From a virus (lineage: Duplodnaviria > Heunggongvirae > Uroviricota > Caudoviricetes), in the IMG/VR virus record IMGVR_UViG_2648501390_000002, positions 1 through 6,926 of that record: a stretch of 6,926 bases of DNA; one strand, 5' to 3'. Position numbers and translations under genes: made by a program. The notes beneath the pieces are model-generated. The model saw nothing but the letters and a program-made list of their open reading frames with translations. It searched no databases and was not told the DNA's origin. This document shows positions 1 to 6,926 of this stretch, in pieces (position 1 is the stretch's first letter; each line of letters begins with the position of its first letter).

Positions 1-129
1 GAGCAAGTAATAGAAATAAAGAAATCAAAGGGAGTTAATCAAAGAGAGCTTGCTAAAAAATACTGTGTCAGTCAGACGGTGATTCACAATATCCAGTCTG
101 GTAAATCGTGGAGGCATGTTAATGGCTGA
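1..129 (+). CDS. 3' end of an upstream gene (5' end outside window); the last 42 aa contain a helix-turn-helix-like segment
   Basis: Frame 1 is open from base 1 to TGA at 127-129 and translates [42 protein letters not shown]. The segment [21 protein letters not shown] has the spacing of a classic HTH (Gly turn, hydrophobic recognition helix). Its stop overlaps the start of the next gene (ATG 122), implying translational coupling. Only 42 aa are visible, so the fold assignment is tentative. Confidence 0.45.
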
Positions 130-1075
130 TTCGAATCTCAATGAGCCAGTAATCATTCAGGCTACGCGGCTCGATACATCAATCCTTCCACGCAATATCT
201 TCTCGCAGTCGTATCTGCTTTACGTTATCGCACAGGGTACTGATGTTGGTAACGTGGCTAACAAAGCCAACGAGGCCGGACAGGGCGCTTATGATGCACA
301 GGTCAGGAACGATGAGCAGGATGTCACCCTTGCAGACCATGAATCCAGAATTGAAGCAGCTGAAGCAACTCTCATCAATCATGAGCATAGAATTGCAGCA
401 GCGGAAAGCACTCTTGCAGATCATGAAACAAGGATTACGGCTGCTGAAACAGAGCTGGCTGATCACGAGACGAGAATTGCTGCCAATGAATCTGAGTTAG
501 CAAACCATGATGCGCGCATAACTCAGAATACAACCGATATCGACGCACTTGATACCAGGCTCACAGCGGCAGAGGGAAGTATTTCGACGCTACAAAGCAC
601 AGTTGGTGATCACTCAACAAGAATATCTGCGCTTGAGTATGCCACCACGCGCAAGAAATCAGAGGTTGTTTACTCAGGGGTATCTGTAACCATCCCGACA
701 GCGCCGACTAACCTTGTTAGCCTGCTGAAAACGCTCACGCCGTCATCCGGAACGTTGGCACCATTCTTCGACACCGTTAACAACAAGATGGTTGTGTTCA
801 ACGAGAACAAAACCCTGTTCTTCAAGCTGTCGATTGTCGGGACGTGGCCCAGTGGAACCGCCAACAGGTCAATGCAGCTAACCTTTTCCGGCTCTGTTCC
901 TGACACACTGGTAAGCAGTCGCAACTCGGCGACAACGACCGATAACATCCTGTTAGCTACGTTCTTCAGCGTGGATAAAGACGGCTTTCTTGCCACAAAT
1001 GGCAGCACGTTAACCATTCAGTCGAATGGTGCGTCGTTTACTGCCACAACCATCAAGATAATCGCGGAGCAGTAA
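122..1075 (+). CDS. Tail needle / cell-envelope-penetrating fiber (P22 gp26-like) with an extra C-terminal knob-like domain
   Basis: ORF-track ORF 116-1075. I prefer ATG 122 because GGAGG at 110-114 sits 7 nt upstream of it but only 1 nt upstream of ATG 116. The N-terminus [43 protein letters not shown] closely matches my recollection of the P22 gp26 N-terminus (from memory, not searched). The centre is five 14-aa coiled-coil repeats (ADHExRIxAAExxL). The protein is 317 aa versus about 233 aa for P22 gp26, and the extra about 150 C-terminal residues are beta-rich (S/T/N/G), as in knob-bearing needles of Sf6-type phages. Confidence 0.85.
332..541 (+). repeat. Five imperfect 42-bp tandem repeats inside the needle gene, encoding 14-residue coiled-coil units
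   Basis: Units at 332-373, 374-415, 416-457, 458-499 and a degenerate one at 500-541 encode [14 protein letters not shown] / [14 protein letters not shown] / [14 protein letters not shown] / [14 protein letters not shown] / [14 protein letters not shown]. Read directly from the sequence. Confidence 0.8.
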
Positions 1076-1530
1076 TGATTCAGTTCAAACCAACGCGAAA
1101 CATCGACCTGATAGAAGCCGTGGGAAATCACCCCGACATTATCACCGGGAGCAACAACGGTGATGGATACGACTACAAGCCTGAATGCCGTTACTTCGAG
1201 GTGAACGTGCACGGTCAGTTTGGCGGCATTGTTTACTATCAGGAGATTCAGCCGCTGACATTCGATTGCCACGCCATGTACCTGCCAGAGGTTCGTGGAT
1301 TCAGCAAGGAAATCGGGCTGGCGTTCTGGCGATACATTCTGACTAACACCACTGTTCAGTGTGTCACATCGTTCGCTGCACGCAAATTCCGCCACGGGCA
1401 GATGTACTGCGCAATGATTGGCCTTAAGCGTGTCGGAACCATCAAGAAATACTTTAAAGGCGTGGATGACGTGACTTTTTACAGCGCCACACGCGAAGAA
1501 CTAATCGACTTCCTGAATCACGGGAGATAG
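1075..1530 (+). CDS. Gene 14-like protein (position and size match P22 gene 14, associated with ejection-protein function/assembly)
   Basis: 151-aa ORF. Its ATG at 1075-1077 shares a base with the TAA stop of the needle gene (TAATG), and GGAG lies 5 nt upstream. The assignment rests on synteny (needle-14-7-20-16 order) and size; I do not recognise the sequence itself. Confidence 0.6.
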   Translation: MIQFKPTRNIDLIEAVGNHPDIITGSNNGDGYDYKPECRYFEVNVHGQFGGIVYYQEIQPLTFDCHAMYLPEVRGFSKEIGLAFWRYILTNTTVQCVTSFAARKFRHGQMYCAMIGLKRVGTIKKYFKGVDDVTFYSATREELIDFLNHGR

Positions 1531-1532
1531 CC

Positions 1533-2228
1533 ATGTTATATGCATTTAAGCTGGGCAGAAAACTGCGCGGCGAGGAACCTTATTGCCCTGAAAAAGGCGG
1601 GAAAGGTGGCTCCGATAAAAGTGCAAAGTATGCCGCAGAAGCTCAGAAGTATGCCGCAGACCTGCAAAATCAGCAGTTCAACACCATCATGAATAACCTG
1701 AAGCCGTTTACTCCTCTGGCTGAGAAGTATGTCGGTAGCCTCGAGAACTTATCGTCTCTGGAGGGGCAAGGTCAGGCACTTAACCAGTATTACAACTCTC
1801 AGCAGTATAAAGACCTTGCAGGTCAGGCTCGCTATCAGAGTCTGGCGGCAGCGGAAGCAACAGGTGGATTGGGTTCCACCTCAACCAGTAATCAGTTAGC
1901 AACAATCGCACCAACGCTTGGTCAGCAATGGCTATCTGGACAAATGAACAACTACCAGAATCTGGCAAATATTGGTCTTGGCGCGCTTCAGGGACAGGCA
2001 AACGCCGGGCAGACATATGCCAACAACATGAGCCAGATTTCACAGCAAAGCGCAGCACTGGCGGCGGCAAACGCTAACAGACCTTCCGGCCTTCAATCTG
2101 CAATAGGCGGGGCTGCCTCTGGAGCAATTGCTGGAGCACAGCTTGGCAGCATTGTTCCCGGTATTGGTACTGGTATTGGTGCCGCTGTTGGCGGCGGTCT
2201 TGGTCTTCTTGGTTCACTACTTTATTAA
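1533..2228 (+). CDS. Ejection (E) protein, P22 gp7-like
   Basis: 231 aa (P22 gp7 is about 229 aa, from memory). It starts 2 nt after the gene 14 stop. It has a basic N-terminal segment (MLYAFKLGRKLRGEEP...), a Gln/Ala/Asn-rich middle, and a Gly/Ala/Ile-rich hydrophobic C-terminus (GGAASGAIAGAQLGSIVPGIGTGIGAAVGGGLGLLGSLLY) suited to membrane insertion. Confidence 0.7.
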   Translation: MLYAFKLGRKLRGEEPYCPEKGGKGGSDKSAKYAAEAQKYAADLQNQQFNTIMNNLKPFTPLAEKYVGSLENLSSLEGQGQALNQYYNSQQYKDLAGQARYQSLAAAEATGGLGSTSTSNQLATIAPTLGQQWLSGQMNNYQNLANIGLGALQGQANAGQTYANNMSQISQQSAALAAANANRPSGLQSAIGGAASGAIAGAQLGSIVPGIGTGIGAAVGGGLGLLGSLLY

Positions 2229-2238
2229 GGGGTAATCA

Positions 2239-3582
2239 ATGGCTACGTGGCAACAGGGTATTAATTCTGGTGGTTTTCTGGCTGGCATCGGTGCGCAAAA
2301 TGAGAATGCGCCAAAGGCAAGCGACATTAACGCAACGCTTGGTCTGATCCGCGAAAACAATGAACTGGCTCGCTCAGGTGCAAATAACGTTGGTCTGACC
2401 GCGTTACGTGGTCTGGCTGGAGTTGCTGATATTTATAAGCAGCAGCAACAGCAGGAACGTAAAGCGGCATTCCAGAAAGGTTATGCAGATGCTTATGCGT
2501 CCGGCGACAGGGAGCAGATGCGTAATCTTATTACAGCATTCCCTGAAGAGTTTGAGGAAGTCCGTAAAGGCATGGGGTATGTCGATGATGCCCAGCGGGA
2601 TGATTTTGGCAATCTGGCGCTCAAGGCTCAGGTAGCTTCGTCGCTTGGTCCGGGCGCATTTGGCAGGTTCATGATGGATAACGAAAAGGAGATGCGTCGT
2701 TTAGGTATCCCTCCAGAAACTATTGCGGAAATGCAGGTTAATGACCCGCAGGGCTTCCAGCACTTCACAGGTAATCTGGCACTATTTTCTCTCGGTCATG
2801 AGAAGTATTTCGATATCAAAGATCGAATGGAGGGGCGTCGACTTGAGCAAGGGCGATTGGATGAAAGCATCCGTCAGGCTGACATGGAGAATGCGAGAGG
2901 ATGGGCAAATATCCAAAATGCTCAACTAGACAGGGCTCAGCGGGCACAAATGCACTCAGATGAGATGGGATTGAAGCTAATGGAGCTGGGGCAAAAAGGT
3001 AAGCCGTCAGCAGACTTAATTAAGGGATTAAATTCTGACATTACCAATTTTGGCAAAAATTATAACTCTGTCAGAGCGGCGGCAAACTCTCTGCAAGCCC
3101 TTAGCAAGGTAAATACTGGCGCTGCCCAACTTGGGATTATCTTTAATTACATGAAGTCTCTCGACCCTCAGTCAGTTGTTCGCGAAGGTGAACAGGTTCA
3201 GGTCATGCGCTCTGATGGCATATGGGGGCAGATAAAAGGATATGTAGACCAGCTTAATGCAGGGAATGGCTTGTCACAGGAAGCGAGGGATAACATTGTC
3301 AACGCAGCAAAAATTAACGCCAACGCTATGGGGCAGCAGTTTAACCAGCAGGTAGACGAATATCTGGATACGTATGGAGATACTATTCCTCAGGGGCTGA
3401 AAAAAAGTTTAGGGAGAAGGAAGGCCAAGCTATTTGACGATGTCCCAGCGCAGCCTACACCACAAGGTGGTAATGGGCAGACAAAAGCTGCGCCAAGTGG
3501 GATATCAGAAGGCGCGACGGCAACGAACCCTAAAACTGGTCAGAAACTCATTTATAGGAACGGACAATGGCAACCGATGTAG
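2239..3582 (+). CDS. Ejection (E) protein, P22 gp20-like
   Basis: 447 aa (P22 gp20 is about 471 aa, from memory). AAGGGG lies upstream of ATG 2239. It is third in the conserved 7-20-16 order, Gln-rich and predicted largely helical, and overlaps the next gene by 16 nt. Confidence 0.7.
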   Translation: MATWQQGINSGGFLAGIGAQNENAPKASDINATLGLIRENNELARSGANNVGLTALRGLAGVADIYKQQQQQERKAAFQKGYADAYASGDREQMRNLITAFPEEFEEVRKGMGYVDDAQRDDFGNLALKAQVASSLGPGAFGRFMMDNEKEMRRLGIPPETIAEMQVNDPQGFQHFTGNLALFSLGHEKYFDIKDRMEGRRLEQGRLDESIRQADMENARGWANIQNAQLDRAQRAQMHSDEMGLKLMELGQKGKPSADLIKGLNSDITNFGKNYNSVRAAANSLQALSKVNTGAAQLGIIFNYMKSLDPQSVVREGEQVQVMRSDGIWGQIKGYVDQLNAGNGLSQEARDNIVNAAKINANAMGQQFNQQVDEYLDTYGDTIPQGLKKSLGRRKAKLFDDVPAQPTPQGGNGQTKAAPSGISEGATATNPKTGQKLIYRNGQWQPM

Positions 3583-5690
3583 GTTTACCCGAAGGCTTTG
3601 TTCTCGATAATCAGCCTGATAACTCACAGCTTCCTGATGGCTTTGTGCTTGATTCCCAACCAGAACAGCAGCAATCTCCTTTGGTTTCACCAGAGGAAAA
3701 TTCCAGACAGGAAAATGTTGTTAATAATGCTAACGGTTTCGACCGTTTTATGTATGGCGTTCTCAGTGGATTGATGGATGTTGGTAAAGGTGTTGGCCTG
3801 TTTCAGGACATGACACCAGAAGAGCAAGCCGCAATTCAGTCTCTACAGCAGAAGTTAGCGGCAAAACCATCAACCGCACAAGATGTTGGTGAGTTCGTTG
3901 GACAAGCAGCACCATTTGTTAGTGGTGGTGGGATTATTTCTCAGGTTCCGAAAGGGGCGGCAAGGCTGGCTGCCGCCGCAGGGCTTGGTGCTGGAGAAGG
4001 GGCTATTGTAGCCAATGGAACAAATAGCGATGTTGCTTCCGGCGCTGCTATTGGCGCTGTGGCTGGCCCTGTAGCCGAGATTGTTGGTCCAGCGCTTGGG
4101 AAGATTGCAGGAAAAATTAAAAATAGTGCCGGAGATATTTATCGCTCATCCGTAGGGATGGGTAGTAAATCATCTAAAGCAACGTTAAAGAAAGCTGCTG
4201 GCGCAATGGATAATAAATTTATTGGTGGGCAACGAGCTATTCAAGATTTCGCCGATGAAGTTAATCCTGATTTTAACGCGATAAATGCTATTCGTGAGCT
4301 AGAACTGGAAAATTATGCCACTCCAGGCATGATCTCTAATAATCCTGCTGTCAGGGCTCTTGATAATGCAGTGGCAAGTCTCCCTGGAACAGAGATTAGT
4401 GAGGCGCATAAGCGTTTTATTACTGAATTAGGAAGAAAAGCTGATGAAATGATAACTTCATTTGGGGGAAACCTTGATAAGCAACTGGTTTCTGACAGGC
4501 TTGCAGATAATTTTGATAAAACCATTTCATCATTACAAAATCAGTCAGATAACATCTACAACAAAATTGCCGAAAAGGTACCTGTAAGAGACCGGATTGA
4601 GGCAACTAATACATTGAATTTTTTAGAGGATTTTGCTGATGACATAGGTGGAATTGATGAATTATCTCCAATAATGAAGCGGACATTGAACCGACTTGAT
4701 CCAAACACCTTGCCAACGTATGGGCGTTTAGATCTCGCTAGAAAGCAGGTTGGACAAGCTATTGGCAAAGGCTCTGGCCCATTCAAGGATGAAGAAACAG
4801 GTGTTCTTAAAAAGTTATATGCAGCCATAACAGATGACCAACAGGCTGTCGCAGAAAAATATGGCGCAGGGGAATTATGGACGCTTGGTAAGGAGTTGGT
4901 AAAAAAACGAAAATCCATTGAAGATGATGCTGTAACCGTCTTGGGTAGAAAACTTCAGCAATCAGCAATTCCAAAAGTTGAAAGTGCCGTTGTTAATATG
5001 GCAAAAGGAAACGGTGGTGACTTTAGGCAATTAATGAAGTCAATTCCAAAGGATATGCGGCAGGAAGTTGCGCTCACCTCAATGAATAAAGCATTTACCA
5101 GCTATGCCAAATCACCTGGTCAGCAATTAGGAGTTGATGGATTTGTAAAATGGTATAACGGAATGTCACGCAATGGGGCCAATATGAAGGCTCTCCGTGA
5201 TGCTATTGGCACAGATGCATCAAAGCGCCTTGATACGATTTATCAAGCAGCTAAGGCTATGAATAGACTCAATACTGGTAAGCAGTATGCTAGTAGCCTT
5301 GTGGATCAGCAAGTTAATAACTTTCTGAAAGAAAAGGGTAGTCTCGCAAAAATTTATGGAATAGCCTCAAAAGCTGCTGCGGCGGAAGGTATTACAAGCT
5401 TATCTGGTCTTCCTGGTGTAGGTGCAACAGGGGTGATAACGTCAGCATTGATGTCAGGGAAAACAAGCAGGATAAAGGCTGCTGATGCCCTACTGTCTTC
5501 TCCTGAGTTTAAATCAATGCTATTTCGCCTGCAAAACGCACCAGTAGACAGAGCAGAAGTGAGACGCGTAATAGAAAGGAAACTGATGCAATCTGGGGCA
5601 TTTAAGAGATGGGAGAAAACCTTATCAACAGATGAAGCAAAAACCATTGCCCGCACGGGGATTATTACATGGCTCGCTAGTGACAGTTAG
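3567..5690 (+). CDS. Ejection (E) protein, P22 gp16-like, with an N-terminal tandem peptide repeat and a compositionally distinct distal part
   Basis: 707 aa (P22 gp16 is about 609 aa, from memory). AGGAA lies 7 nt upstream of ATG 3567, and the start overlaps the gp20-like stop. It is the last gene of the co-directional block and has a Gly/Ala-rich segment (aa about 110-180). Confidence 0.7.
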   Translation: MATDVGLPEGFVLDNQPDNSQLPDGFVLDSQPEQQQSPLVSPEENSRQENVVNNANGFDRFMYGVLSGLMDVGKGVGLFQDMTPEEQAAIQSLQQKLAAKPSTAQDVGEFVGQAAPFVSGGGIISQVPKGAARLAAAAGLGAGEGAIVANGTNSDVASGAAIGAVAGPVAEIVGPALGKIAGKIKNSAGDIYRSSVGMGSKSSKATLKKAAGAMDNKFIGGQRAIQDFADEVNPDFNAINAIRELELENYATPGMISNNPAVRALDNAVASLPGTEISEAHKRFITELGRKADEMITSFGGNLDKQLVSDRLADNFDKTISSLQNQSDNIYNKIAEKVPVRDRIEATNTLNFLEDFADDIGGIDELSPIMKRTLNRLDPNTLPTYGRLDLARKQVGQAIGKGSGPFKDEETGVLKKLYAAITDDQQAVAEKYGAGELWTLGKELVKKRKSIEDDAVTVLGRKLQQSAIPKVESAVVNMAKGNGGDFRQLMKSIPKDMRQEVALTSMNKAFTSYAKSPGQQLGVDGFVKWYNGMSRNGANMKALRDAIGTDASKRLDTIYQAAKAMNRLNTGKQYASSLVDQQVNNFLKEKGSLAKIYGIASKAAAAEGITSLSGLPGVGATGVITSALMSGKTSRIKAADALLSSPEFKSMLFRLQNAPVDRAEVRRVIERKLMQSGAFKRWEKTLSTDEAKTIARTGIITWLASDS
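3585..3674 (+). repeat. Two 45-bp tandem repeats encoding LPEGFVLDNQPDNSQ / LPDGFVLDSQPEQQQ at the N-terminus of the gp16-like protein
   Basis: Direct read: 3585-3629 and 3630-3674 encode near-identical 15-aa units with the core LP[ED]GFVLD[NS]QP. Confidence 0.75.
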
Positions 5691-5914
5691 TCAACTTTGG
5701 TTATTTTGCCTTCTTTTTCTTGATGAACTTTGCATCCATCATCTTTTGATAGCCAAACTAAAAACTTTAAAACCTTAAACACAAGTAAGGCTACTGCAAT
5801 GAAAGCACCAATCGCAATTATTGCTAGCGAAATTATTTGCATTGGTGCTTTTAATGCAGGGAAAATAGTGTAAATGATCGCGAAAACAGTAATTATGAGG
5901 AACCATCGCTTCAC
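5687..5914 (-). CDS. Small inner-membrane protein (75 aa, two predicted TM helices, charged C-terminal tail); candidate superinfection-exclusion or membrane-acting accessory protein
   Basis: The ORF track gives 5687-5989 (100 aa from ATG 5989), but that ATG has no Shine-Dalgarno sequence. An in-frame GTG at 5914-5912 is preceded by a perfect AAGGAGG (complement of 5920-5926) with a 5-nt spacer. The product is VKRWFLIITVFAIIYTIFPALKAPMQIISLAIIAIGAFIAVALLVFKVLKFLVWLSKDDGCKVHQEKEGKITKVD: two hydrophobic stretches of about 18-23 aa, then a Lys/Asp/Glu-rich tail. Its stop (complement of 5687-5689) overlaps the gene 16 stop (5688-5690). Confidence 0.55.
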   Translation of the reverse strand: MKRWFLIITVFAIIYTIFPALKAPMQIISLAIIAIGAFIAVALLVFKVLKFLVWLSKDDGCKVHQEKEGKITKVD

Positions 5915-5978
5915 ACCAACCTCCTTAGTTTTGTGCAGGATACCAGATGATAATGTGTAGTTGGAGTAGCGCGGTTGT

Positions 5979-6070
5979 AATGCAAGCATTTTGTTTTGGT
6001 TTTATGCTTGCTTGTATGTGTGTACAGTGCATATAATGCAAGCATACATCACAATAAAGGTGCTTGCATT
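5979..6070. promoter_or_regulatory. Divergent control region with four copies of a near-palindromic operator-like motif (consensus AATGCWWGCATT)
   Basis: O1 at 5979-5990 is AATGCAAGCATT (perfect 5-bp inverted arms around AA). O2 at 6003-6014 is TATGCTTGCTTG (core ATGCTTGC). O3 at 6035-6046 is AATGCAAGCATA. O4 at 6059-6070 is GGTGCTTGCATT and abuts ATG 6071. Centre-to-centre spacings are about 23, 33 and 24 bp, with alternating AA/TT centres. Confidence 0.5.
6008..6037 (+). promoter_or_regulatory. Putative sigma70-type promoter for the rightward gene (-35 TTGCTT, 18-bp spacer, -10 TATAAT)
   Basis: TTGCTT at 6008-6013 and a consensus TATAAT at 6032-6037. O2 overlaps the -35 and O3 overlaps the -10/+1 region. 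AAAGG at 6055-6059 is a plausible RBS for ATG 6071. Not experimentally supported. Confidence 0.4.
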
Positions 6071-6926
6071 ATGACTGAAAAGAAAAGTGGCGAAGGGAAA
6101 GCTAAGGGCGGTATCGCTCGCGCAAAGTCGCTGACTAAAGAGCAGCGTTCTGAAATAGCAAAGAAAGCAGCGGCTGCAAGATGGAAGGATAAACCATTAA
6201 TTGCTACGCATAAGGGATCGTTCCAGCATGAATTCGGGATTGATGTTGAGTGCTATGTGTTAAATGATGATAACAAAACTGCCGTTATTAGCCAGAGAGG
6301 CATGGGAGAAGCGATTGGTCTTGGCGAAGGTGGCAGCAGGTTGCCAAAGTTTATTCAGGGGAAAACTATTTCTCAGTATATCGGGCATGAATTAAGGGCA
6401 AAACTTGAAAATCCTCTTATTTTTCAATACAAACAGGCGGGCACGAACACTCCAGCTAATCCTGTAATACATGGCTACGATGTAACAATATTAATTGATT
6501 TATGTCGAGCAATCTCTAATGCTAAAGCTGAAGGTAAGTTGCTTTCCAGTCAGGAAGGGATTGCTAAGCAAGCCAGAATCATTATTGATGCATCAGCCAA
6601 GGCGGGCATTCAGGGGCTTGTTTATGCTTTGGCAGGGTATGACAGAACAAAAGAAGAGGTAATTCAAGCATATAAGCGATATGTTGCTGAAGAGGCTCGT
6701 GAGTATGAAAGAGAGTTCACCCCTGAACTTTATGAGCATTGGTATCGTCTGTATGGTATAGACAAACCAGTTAGAGGGCGACCATGGGCGTTTAAATATC
6801 TTACGATAGATCACATTTATTACCCATTAGCCAGAAGTGAAGGAAAGGTATTTAATTTAGCAAAAACGTCAAAAGAAGAAAAAGGCAGCAAAAACGATAA
6901 AATACACCAGTTTTTATCAGAGGTTG
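6071..6926 (+). CDS. 5' part of a gene for a phage regulatory-type protein (P63C-domain / antirepressor-like family; 3' end outside window)
   Basis: Frame 2 is open from ATG 6071 to the window end (285 codons). It is missing from the ORF track, presumably because it has no stop in the window. The N-terminus MTEKKSGEGKAKGGIARAKSLTKEQRSEIAKKAAAARWKDK carries the basic motif GGxARAxxLTxEQRxEIAxKAAxARW, which I associate from memory with P63C-domain proteins that accompany Bro-N/KilA-N/Ant-type antirepressor domains. It is preceded by the operator/promoter region. Confidence 0.7.
   Translation, partial: MTEKKSGEGKAKGGIARAKSLTKEQRSEIAKKAAAARWKDKPLIATHKGSFQHEFGIDVECYVLNDDNKTAVISQRGMGEAIGLGEGGSRLPKFIQGKTISQYIGHELRAKLENPLIFQYKQAGTNTPANPVIHGYDVTILIDLCRAISNAKAEGKLLSSQEGIAKQARIIIDASAKAGIQGLVYALAGYDRTKEEVIQAYKRYVAEEAREYEREFTPELYEHWYRLYGIDKPVRGRPWAFKYLTIDHIYYPLARSEGKVFNLAKTSKEEKGSKNDKIHQFLSEV

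Follow-up and report, generated by a model that had tools for sequence, protein, structure and literature searches.

The gene at nt 122–1075 (plus strand) of the window, the whole 6,926-nucleotide stretch of DNA that was analyzed, is almost certainly the tail needle gene of a P22-like (Lederbergvirus-type) temperate Escherichia coli phage or prophage, of the "knobbed" type known from Sf6 and HS1, with a 16-heptad shaft built of 14-aa units whose number changes in the population. The gene comprises 317 codons and a stop, running from the ATG at 122 to the stop codon ending at 1075. The mechanical list of open reading frames begins six bases earlier, at the ATG at 116; homologues begin with MADSNLNEP, and the start at 122 given by the sequence-only reading is therefore correct. 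The gene is the orthologue of P22 gene 26, Sf6 gene 9, and HS1 EcHS_A0316. Its best full-length DNA match was found in E. coli HS (NC_009800.1, 320115–321068; 97.8%), where it is annotated as "tail needle knob protein", and phages Gally, JEP4, and vB_EcoP-720R6 matched across the full needle gene at 95–96%, with Sf6 gene 9 matching in two pieces and part of the shaft skipped. The protein matched phrog_1030 ("tail needle knob", E = 2e-136) and phrog_1219 ("tail needle protein", E = 6e-60). Nothing was found against the identification, and the earlier description of a tail needle with a P22-type plug and a repeat-built coiled coil is borne out by the PDB, Pfam, and PHROG matches.

The protein is already known, because Leavitt et al. 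2013 (PMC3741392) describe an HS1 needle of 317 aa and 16 heptads with a solved knob. The window protein is a near-copy of that needle (EcHS_A0316, WP_000785558.1; knob 4K6B), sharing its length, heptad number, and knob, with 311 of 317 residues identical and 97.8% identity at the DNA level. It is not a new design, and the novelty implied by the sequence-only reading is absent, 317 aa, 16 heptads, and the knob 4K6B all having been published in 2013. Six substitutions separate the two proteins (window to HS1: E8V, I21V, D100E, A107D, T138A, and S305A), and at the last of these the window shares Ser305 with Sf6, unlike HS1. The N-terminal domain of the HS1 needle is itself 98% identical to that of Sf6 (PMC3741392).

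The window covers the module in which a P22-like E. coli phage encodes its needle and ejection proteins. Downstream of the needle gene lie a DUF2824, gp14-like gene (nt 1075–1530; Pfam), a P22 gp7 family gene (nt 1533–2228; PF25688, E = 7e-128), a gp20 family gene (Inj_translocase, nt 2239–3582; PF16928), and a gene for a 707-aa gp16-like DNA-transfer protein (nt 3567–5690), which matched phrog_6704 over its full length and had no Pfam match. The same gene order (needle, DUF2824, gp7, gp20, gp16-like) occurs in annotated prophages, and the downstream neighbors in HS1 are likewise DUF2824 followed by the gp7 and gp20 homologues. The P22 gp26 gene also sits directly upstream of gp14-like and ejection-protein genes, and by analogy the two needles would have a plugging and ejection role in common. 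The needle gene thus sits where it is expected, with the gp14-like and ejection genes on one side; gp10, the hub gene expected on the other, lies outside the window. The HS1 needle gene directly adjoins gp10, whereas the window starts inside an HNH/NUMOD4 endonuclease gene that ends at nt 129. In E. coli STEC346 this endonuclease gene sits between gp10 and the needle gene.

Partial database matches show that module joints lie at both ends of the needle gene and at the boundary between plug and shaft. Matches to the needle gene begin at nt 120 of the window, and phages E212 and EC.P3 match nt 1075–5967 at 96% and carry a different needle type. Many P22-like phages match the DNA of only the first 200–204 nt of the gene, HK620 doing so at 94% (nt 1–203 of the gene). 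These matches, confined to the first ∼203 nt, mark a mosaic joint at the start of the repeats. The needle of HK620 (5BU5, 5BU8, and 5BVZ) resembles that of the window in its N-terminal domain, where the first 200 nt are 94% identical and the proteins align over aa 1–79; unlike the window needle, it ends in a P22-type tip of subtype A (PMC3741392), without a knob.

The N-terminal part of the protein comprises a gp26-type plug/hub-binding domain together with the start of the helix (nt 122–325, plus strand; aa 1–68). Over this region 57 of 68 residues (84%) are identical to those of P22 gp26 (233 aa; 2POH and 3C9I). The PDB entries 2poh (E = 2e-42), 3c9i, and 4zkp align with aa 1–139, with E values of about 1e-42, and 8eap_B, which contains the gp26 residues in the virion, matched the needle N terminus with E = 7e-28. 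Together with phrog_1219, the matches to P22 gp26 and 8eap_B place a plug/hub-binding domain of about 60 aa in the window protein. The NxxQD motif is also retained (N63, Q66, and D67; nt 308–322). In P22 gp26 these three residues occupy heptad positions a, d, and e, respectively, and form a Ca2+ site (PMC13580157).

The plug is followed by a coiled-coil shaft of 16 uninterrupted heptads (nt 308–643, plus strand; aa 63–174), delineated using the register of P22 gp26. The register was anchored on two gp26 residues, N63 (position a; PMC13580157) and I133 (position a; PMC4786415), which are mutually consistent because they lie 70 residues, or ten heptads, apart. The window protein aligns with gp26 without gaps over aa 1–124, and heptads were counted from N63. 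Position a is occupied by Leu, Ile, or Val in 15 of the 16 heptads, and position d by Gln once, His six times, Ala four times, Asn twice, and Leu three times. The AlphaFold2 model, a monomer built from a shallow alignment with a mean pLDDT of 74.7 and with the N terminus and parts of the knob poor, contains a single helix spanning aa 42–175, for which block-mean pLDDT values are ≥90 over about aa 71–160. A continuous heptad shaft is therefore present by sequence pattern and by the helicity of the monomer model, and its trimeric state and coiled-coil geometry are predicted by analogy with the P22 gp26 structures and from the sequence. None of the solved structures covers aa 140–165 of the HS1-type shaft. 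The helical core of HS1 has 16 heptads versus 11 in both Sf6 and P22 (PMC3741392). P22 gp26 resembles the window needle in its plug, its NxxQD motif, and a register that puts His73 and His87 at position d, and differs from it in its 11 heptads, in a shaft identity of only 36% over aa 69–124, and in an unrelated tip (aa 141–233).

Six histidines of the shaft fall at heptad position d: H73 (nt 338–340), H87 (nt 380–382), H101 (nt 422–424), H115 (nt 464–466), H129 (nt 506–508), and H164 (nt 611–613), all on the plus strand and all placed by the register. The first five are distributed one to each of the five repeat units, in agreement with the earlier observation of a conserved His in every repeat, and H164 is the sixth. 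Leu precedes each of the six His3 layers at position a, and the residue following His, at position e, is Glu or Asp in the five array units and Ser at H164. The 14-residue unit, L-x-x-H-E-x-R / I-x-x-A-E-x-x, spans two heptads, and core layers of Leu(a)/His(d) alternate in it with layers of Ile(a)/Ala(d).

The His layers may be places of ion binding or pH sensing. A function of this kind for the six His3 layers at d, governing needle stability or triggered unfolding during ejection, is unlikely. In its favor, His fills core position d in six of the 16 window heptads; of the 536 shaft histidines counted across 109 homologues whose shafts stay in phase, 504 occupy d and the remainder f; and H73 and H164 are invariant in the homologue protein alignment. 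The gp26 core is also said to hold anions at its Asn(d) layers, as reported by Hartmann et al. in 2009. Within the array, all five units pair His(d) with Glu/Asp(e), reminiscent of the Q(d)-D(e) arrangement of the P22 gp26 Ca2+ site (PMC13580157), and Ca2+ is held in the gp26 core at N63/Q66 (PMC13580157). Against it, a limited literature search found no report of His-bound ions in the gp26 structures, in which H73 and H87 are both present. In addition, a degenerate sixth unit carries Leu (L143) at the place equivalent to His, and His may be merely a tolerated mid-size core residue.

Within the shaft, nt 326–535 (plus strand; aa 69–138) hold five in-phase units of 42 nt (14 aa) that follow the pattern xL[AI][DN]H[ED]xRIxxxxx. 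Beyond them the repeat continues in degenerate form (nt 536–643, plus strand; aa 139–174); this stretch takes in the knob junction and the last motif, DHSTRI, with H164 at nt 611–613. Residue identity along the shaft at a lag of 14 is 44%, compared with 9 ± 3% for shuffled sequences, none of 5000 shuffles reaching 44%, and falls to only 14% at a lag of 7. At the DNA level identity peaks at lags of 42 (0.60) and 84 (0.59), with a knob control of at most 0.31. The description of five near-identical 42-bp repeats holds for the number, length, and phase of the units and fails for their similarity, the units having diverged to pairwise identities of 36–76% in DNA and 36–79% in protein. Units 1–4 are 52–76% (DNA) and 64–79% (protein) identical among themselves, and unit 5 differs most, with 36–55% and 36–50% identity, respectively, to the others. 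Tandem Repeats Finder reported a period of 42 with 2.5 copies and 69% matches at nt 325–427, and a repeat search also placed two repeat families (D1 and D2) in the array; these results, with the pairwise identities, rule out near-identical repeats. The array decays gradually, unit 6 being a degenerate copy and the sixth DHxxRI motif lying at aa 163–168.

With the units aligned in register, exact homology between them extends over only 3–8 nt, no pair exceeding 8 nt. A high-frequency, contingency-type tandem-repeat locus is excluded by this short exact homology (≤8 nt) and by the 36–76% DNA identity of the units. Changes in unit number exist between genomes and nothing points to a high rate of switching; in the window gene itself length changes are probably rare, given how short these exact matches are.

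Lengths were compared in the best 120 cluster representatives of 2,540 relatives returned by a protein search. Among these best 120 of 2,540, needle lengths differed by multiples of seven residues (254, 268, 282, 289, 296, 303, 310, 317, 324, 331, 338, and 345 aa), and shafts counted between the NDEQD and LEYAT anchors contained 7, 9, 11, 12, 13, 14, 15, 16, 18, 19, or 20 heptads. Repeat number is thus variable among homologues, ranging from 7 to 20 heptads, rather than invariant. Only four homologues of the best 120 clusters, all from singleton clusters, had out-of-phase shafts, which may represent sequencing errors or dead genes. In the protein alignment every insertion or deletion sits between equivalent points of the DHExRI motifs, and two shaft flavors, HS1-like and Sf6-like, each occur in several lengths. 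Shigella phage Sf6 gp9 (282 aa; 3RWN) shares with the window needle the plug domain, the knob (152 of 153 residues), and the 14-residue type of unit with His at d; it differs in having 11 heptads versus 16, or 35 aa fewer (PMC3741392), and its shaft is of the other sequence flavor, ILADHEQRISAAEATLVNHEERISQAES... In some homologues, such as P0062 (268 aa), unit 4 is joined straight to the last DHxxRI motif.

Alignment of the DNA of near-identical genes resolved several of these differences into exact units. In the 345-aa variant 84 nt are duplicated, and the two copies differ at only one of the 84 positions; the 289-aa variant has a matching 84-nt deletion that joins unit 1 to unit 3, the 303-aa variant a 42-nt deletion, and the 331-aa variant a combination of +84 and −42 nt. 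The crossovers are located in microhomologies of 5–8 nt between units, for example CTTGCAGA or CATGAA. Junctions of this kind suggest that units are gained and lost through slippage, through annealing at short homologies, or through exchange out of register between related co-infecting phages. Because the homologies are short, changes in unit number would be rare events and not a fast switch. The earlier proposal that the repeats expand and contract, altering needle length, is accordingly supported by in-register 42- and 84-nt insertions and deletions and by the range of 7–20 heptads among the best 120 clusters.

An alternative would be that the 14-residue periodicity reflects a generic coiled-coil constraint without tandem-repeat dynamics, and that the length differences are ancient differences between lineages. 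The divergence of the units (36–76% DNA identity, exact in-register runs ≤8 nt) and the mere 2.5 copies detected by Tandem Repeats Finder are compatible with this, as is the dominance by members of two length classes, 11 heptads (3,650 sequences) and 16 heptads (1,643 sequences). However, a lag of 14 gives 44% identity, three times the 14% found for a lag of 7, and the unit is therefore a 14-mer and not a generic heptad. Moreover, where genes are otherwise near-identical across the aligned part of the shaft, what sets them apart is whole units of exactly 42 or 84 nt; the 84-nt duplication, with copies matching at 83 of 84 positions, is therefore recent, and several lengths arise independently in both shaft flavors. 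Periodicity without repeat dynamics is very improbable on these grounds, being largely refuted, as far as sequence comparison can do so, by the DNA alignment of near-identical genes.

The very short variants are not prophage remnants, as the 254-aa and 268-aa genes were both located in full P22-like structural clusters. The 254-aa locus contains uncalled gaps at the expected place of the tailspike gene, and that prophage may be decaying. The shaft range published earlier was 11–16 heptads (PMC3741392), and the range of 7–20 heptads with unit-exact junctions is a modest extension of it that introduces no new principle.

The C-terminal part of the protein is an Sf6-type knob, a TNF-like jelly-roll trimer by its PDB and Pfam matches (nt 644–1072, plus strand; aa 175–317). 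Residues 165–317 are identical at 152 of 153 positions to each of 4k6b (HS1 knob) and 3rwn (Sf6 knob), with E of about 4e-90, and the sequence-only reading had rightly named the Sf6 and HS1 knobs as comparators. Pfam PF16532 (Phage_tail_NK, "Sf6-type phage tail needle knob") matched with E = 8e-109 and 361 bits against a cut-off of 27. The HS1 knob, solved at 1.1 Å, is 99% identical to that of Sf6 (PMC3741392). In the AlphaFold2 monomer, strands extend over aa 179–316 and form a separate β-rich domain. The residues that contact L-glutamate (E181, K235, S283, and D285) and the tip triad S266-R267-N268, as listed in PMC3741392, are all present and are invariant in the homologue alignment. The P22-type tip (gp26 aa 141–233) has no counterpart in the window, and alignments to 2poh, 3c9i, and 4zkp end at about aa 139; the knob replaces P22's own C-terminal tip (PMC3741392). 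The earlier account of an extra β-rich C-terminal extension of about 150 aa is consequently correct in that the domain is a separate one, by both the AlphaFold2 monomer and 4k6b/3rwn, and incorrect in that it takes the place of the P22 tip and is not an add-on.

A rival reading would have the knob bind a receptor and thereby determine host range, in the manner of the adenovirus and PRD1 knobs that it resembles. The 2013 description reports that a TNF-like fold is common to the knob, the adenovirus fibre knob, and PRD1 P5, with the knob forming the outermost tip of the virion (PMC3741392), and in 2013 knob-type needles were known only from Escherichia and Shigella phages (PMC3741392). Such a role is nevertheless highly doubtful. 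P22 chimeras with Sf6 or HS1 knobs infect Salmonella normally, mutation of the L-glutamate site has no apparent effect, and changes to the tip alter only the kinetics of K+ release (PMC3741392). Close homologues are, furthermore, now annotated in Klebsiella aerogenes, Serratia marcescens, and a Klebsiella phage. The suggestion that the knob adds receptor interactions thus finds no support in published work, the normal infection of Salmonella by P22 with Sf6 or HS1 knobs (PMC3741392) counting against it. Escape mutations selected by the defense system TaiEcC fall in the C-terminal region of gp26 in both P22 and HK620 (PMC11364771), and such selection may be one pressure for swapping of the tip.

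The proposed mechanism follows work on P22, Sf6, and HS1, according to which three needle chains would form one fibre. Once the DNA is packaged, its conserved N-terminal roughly 60 residues would enter the gp10 hub and close the DNA channel, this hexameric hub being the known site plugged by the needle N terminus (PMC9728967). The 16-heptad trimeric coiled coil would then constitute a rigid shaft of about 20 nm, reaching past the tailspikes and carrying the TNF-like knob as the distal tip of the needle. As the tailspikes digest the O-antigen, the needle would be pushed into the outer membrane, the hub would loosen, and the needle would be ejected, followed by the ejection proteins gp7, gp20, and gp16, which are encoded directly downstream in the window. 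Consistent with these last steps, a small opening of the hub releases the needle, after which gp7, gp20, and gp16 exit (bioRxiv 10.64898/2026.09.03.749273). Plugging and ejection are known for P22 gp26 and have been modelled for Sf6 gp9 (PMC9728967; bioRxiv 10.64898/2026.09.03.749273), and we infer by homology that the window needle plugs the portal and is ejected on infection.

At roughly 1 nm per heptad, the length of the shaft may determine the reach of the tip and hence the timing of the trigger. A more speculative extension is that the shaft acts as an evolvable length ruler, in which gains and losses of units (7–20 heptads, roughly 13 nm) tune the projection of the tip past the tailspikes and hence the timing of outer-membrane-triggered release on hosts with different surface layers, and to which stacked His3 layers might add ion- or pH-dependent stability; we regard this as quite unlikely. 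A link between shaft length and stability was reportedly made by Bhardwaj et al. in 2009.

Knobbed needles, solved knob structures, and the 16-heptad HS1 shaft are already in the literature, and the present analysis makes modest additions to them: a census of 7–20 heptads in whole-heptad steps, the DNA junctions of recent unit-sized duplications and deletions, and the finding that nearly all shaft His residues lie at core position d. As annotation, its value is in settling the gene identity of the needle open reading frame at nt 122–1075. Although no new question is opened, these additions could inform the design of gp26-type protein fibres or experimental work on the length of the needle.

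The tail needle gene (window 122-1075, + strand) is immediately preceded by the 3' end (42 codons and the stop codon; window 1-129, + strand) of a homing-endonuclease-like gene that is free-standing, encodes NUMOD4, HNH_3, and HTH domains, and overlaps the needle start codon, the overlap being 8 nt. This segment is identical over 120/120 nt to L1P11_RS16975, a gene for a 181-aa protein in E. coli STEC346, where it separates the hub gene gp10 from the needle gene. In HS1 (the E. coli HS prophage with a near-identical needle), the Shigella phage Sf6, and most prophages, gp10 directly adjoins the needle gene. Of 5,426 complete E. coli genomes, just 16 contain the full endonuclease-like gene. Phage HZ41 carries this gene at the same site but beside a different needle type, an arrangement suggesting that the gene homes site-specifically to the junction of gp10 and the needle gene.

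The gene at the position of the ejection protein gp16 (window 3567-5690, + strand) encodes a 707-aa protein whose entire length matches phrog_6704, with only a weak match to phrog_770 ("DNA transfer protein"). No Pfam match was found for this protein, whereas in other P22-like prophages the homologues of gp16 match PF26808. The G+C content falls from ∼0.50 to ∼0.40 from window nt 4200 onward, suggesting a mosaic joint within or near the gp16-position gene.

Directly past this gene, on the opposite strand, lies a 100-aa ORF (window 5687-5989, - strand) that matches phrog_7294, a family of unknown function (E = 9e-48), with no match in Pfam. P22-like phages have genes for lysogenic conversion or exclusion, sieA among them, at this position. 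Two hydrophobic stretches were identified by eye in the ORF and its product may thus be a membrane protein, perhaps expressed from the prophage. The window ends within an ORF (about 6071-6926, + strand, continuing past the window end) that encodes 285 aa or more and has a P63C domain at its C-terminus (PF10546, E = 5e-8). Downstream of its homologue in E. coli M15 are a ClpP-like gene, two genes for Arc-family (Arc/Mnt-like) repressors, and an antirepressor gene, an arrangement that looks like the immI region.

The shortest needle homologue (254 aa, seven heptads) is encoded by the prophage at locus L008, in which two stretches (13220-13715 and 16534-18817) contain no called gene, one lying between gp20 and gp16 and another at the expected site of the tailspike gene. 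This prophage may be decaying and, consequently, a functional seven-heptad needle is not proven.

Database matches to the window break at nt 120, where the needle gene starts, at nt 325, where the N-terminal plug gives way to the coiled-coil shaft (about nt 203 of the gene), and at the stop codon, nt 1075. Window nt 1075-5967 is common to phages E212 and EC.P3 at 96%, with a different needle in both. The needle gene and the sub-domains of the needle appear to be exchanged as cassettes.
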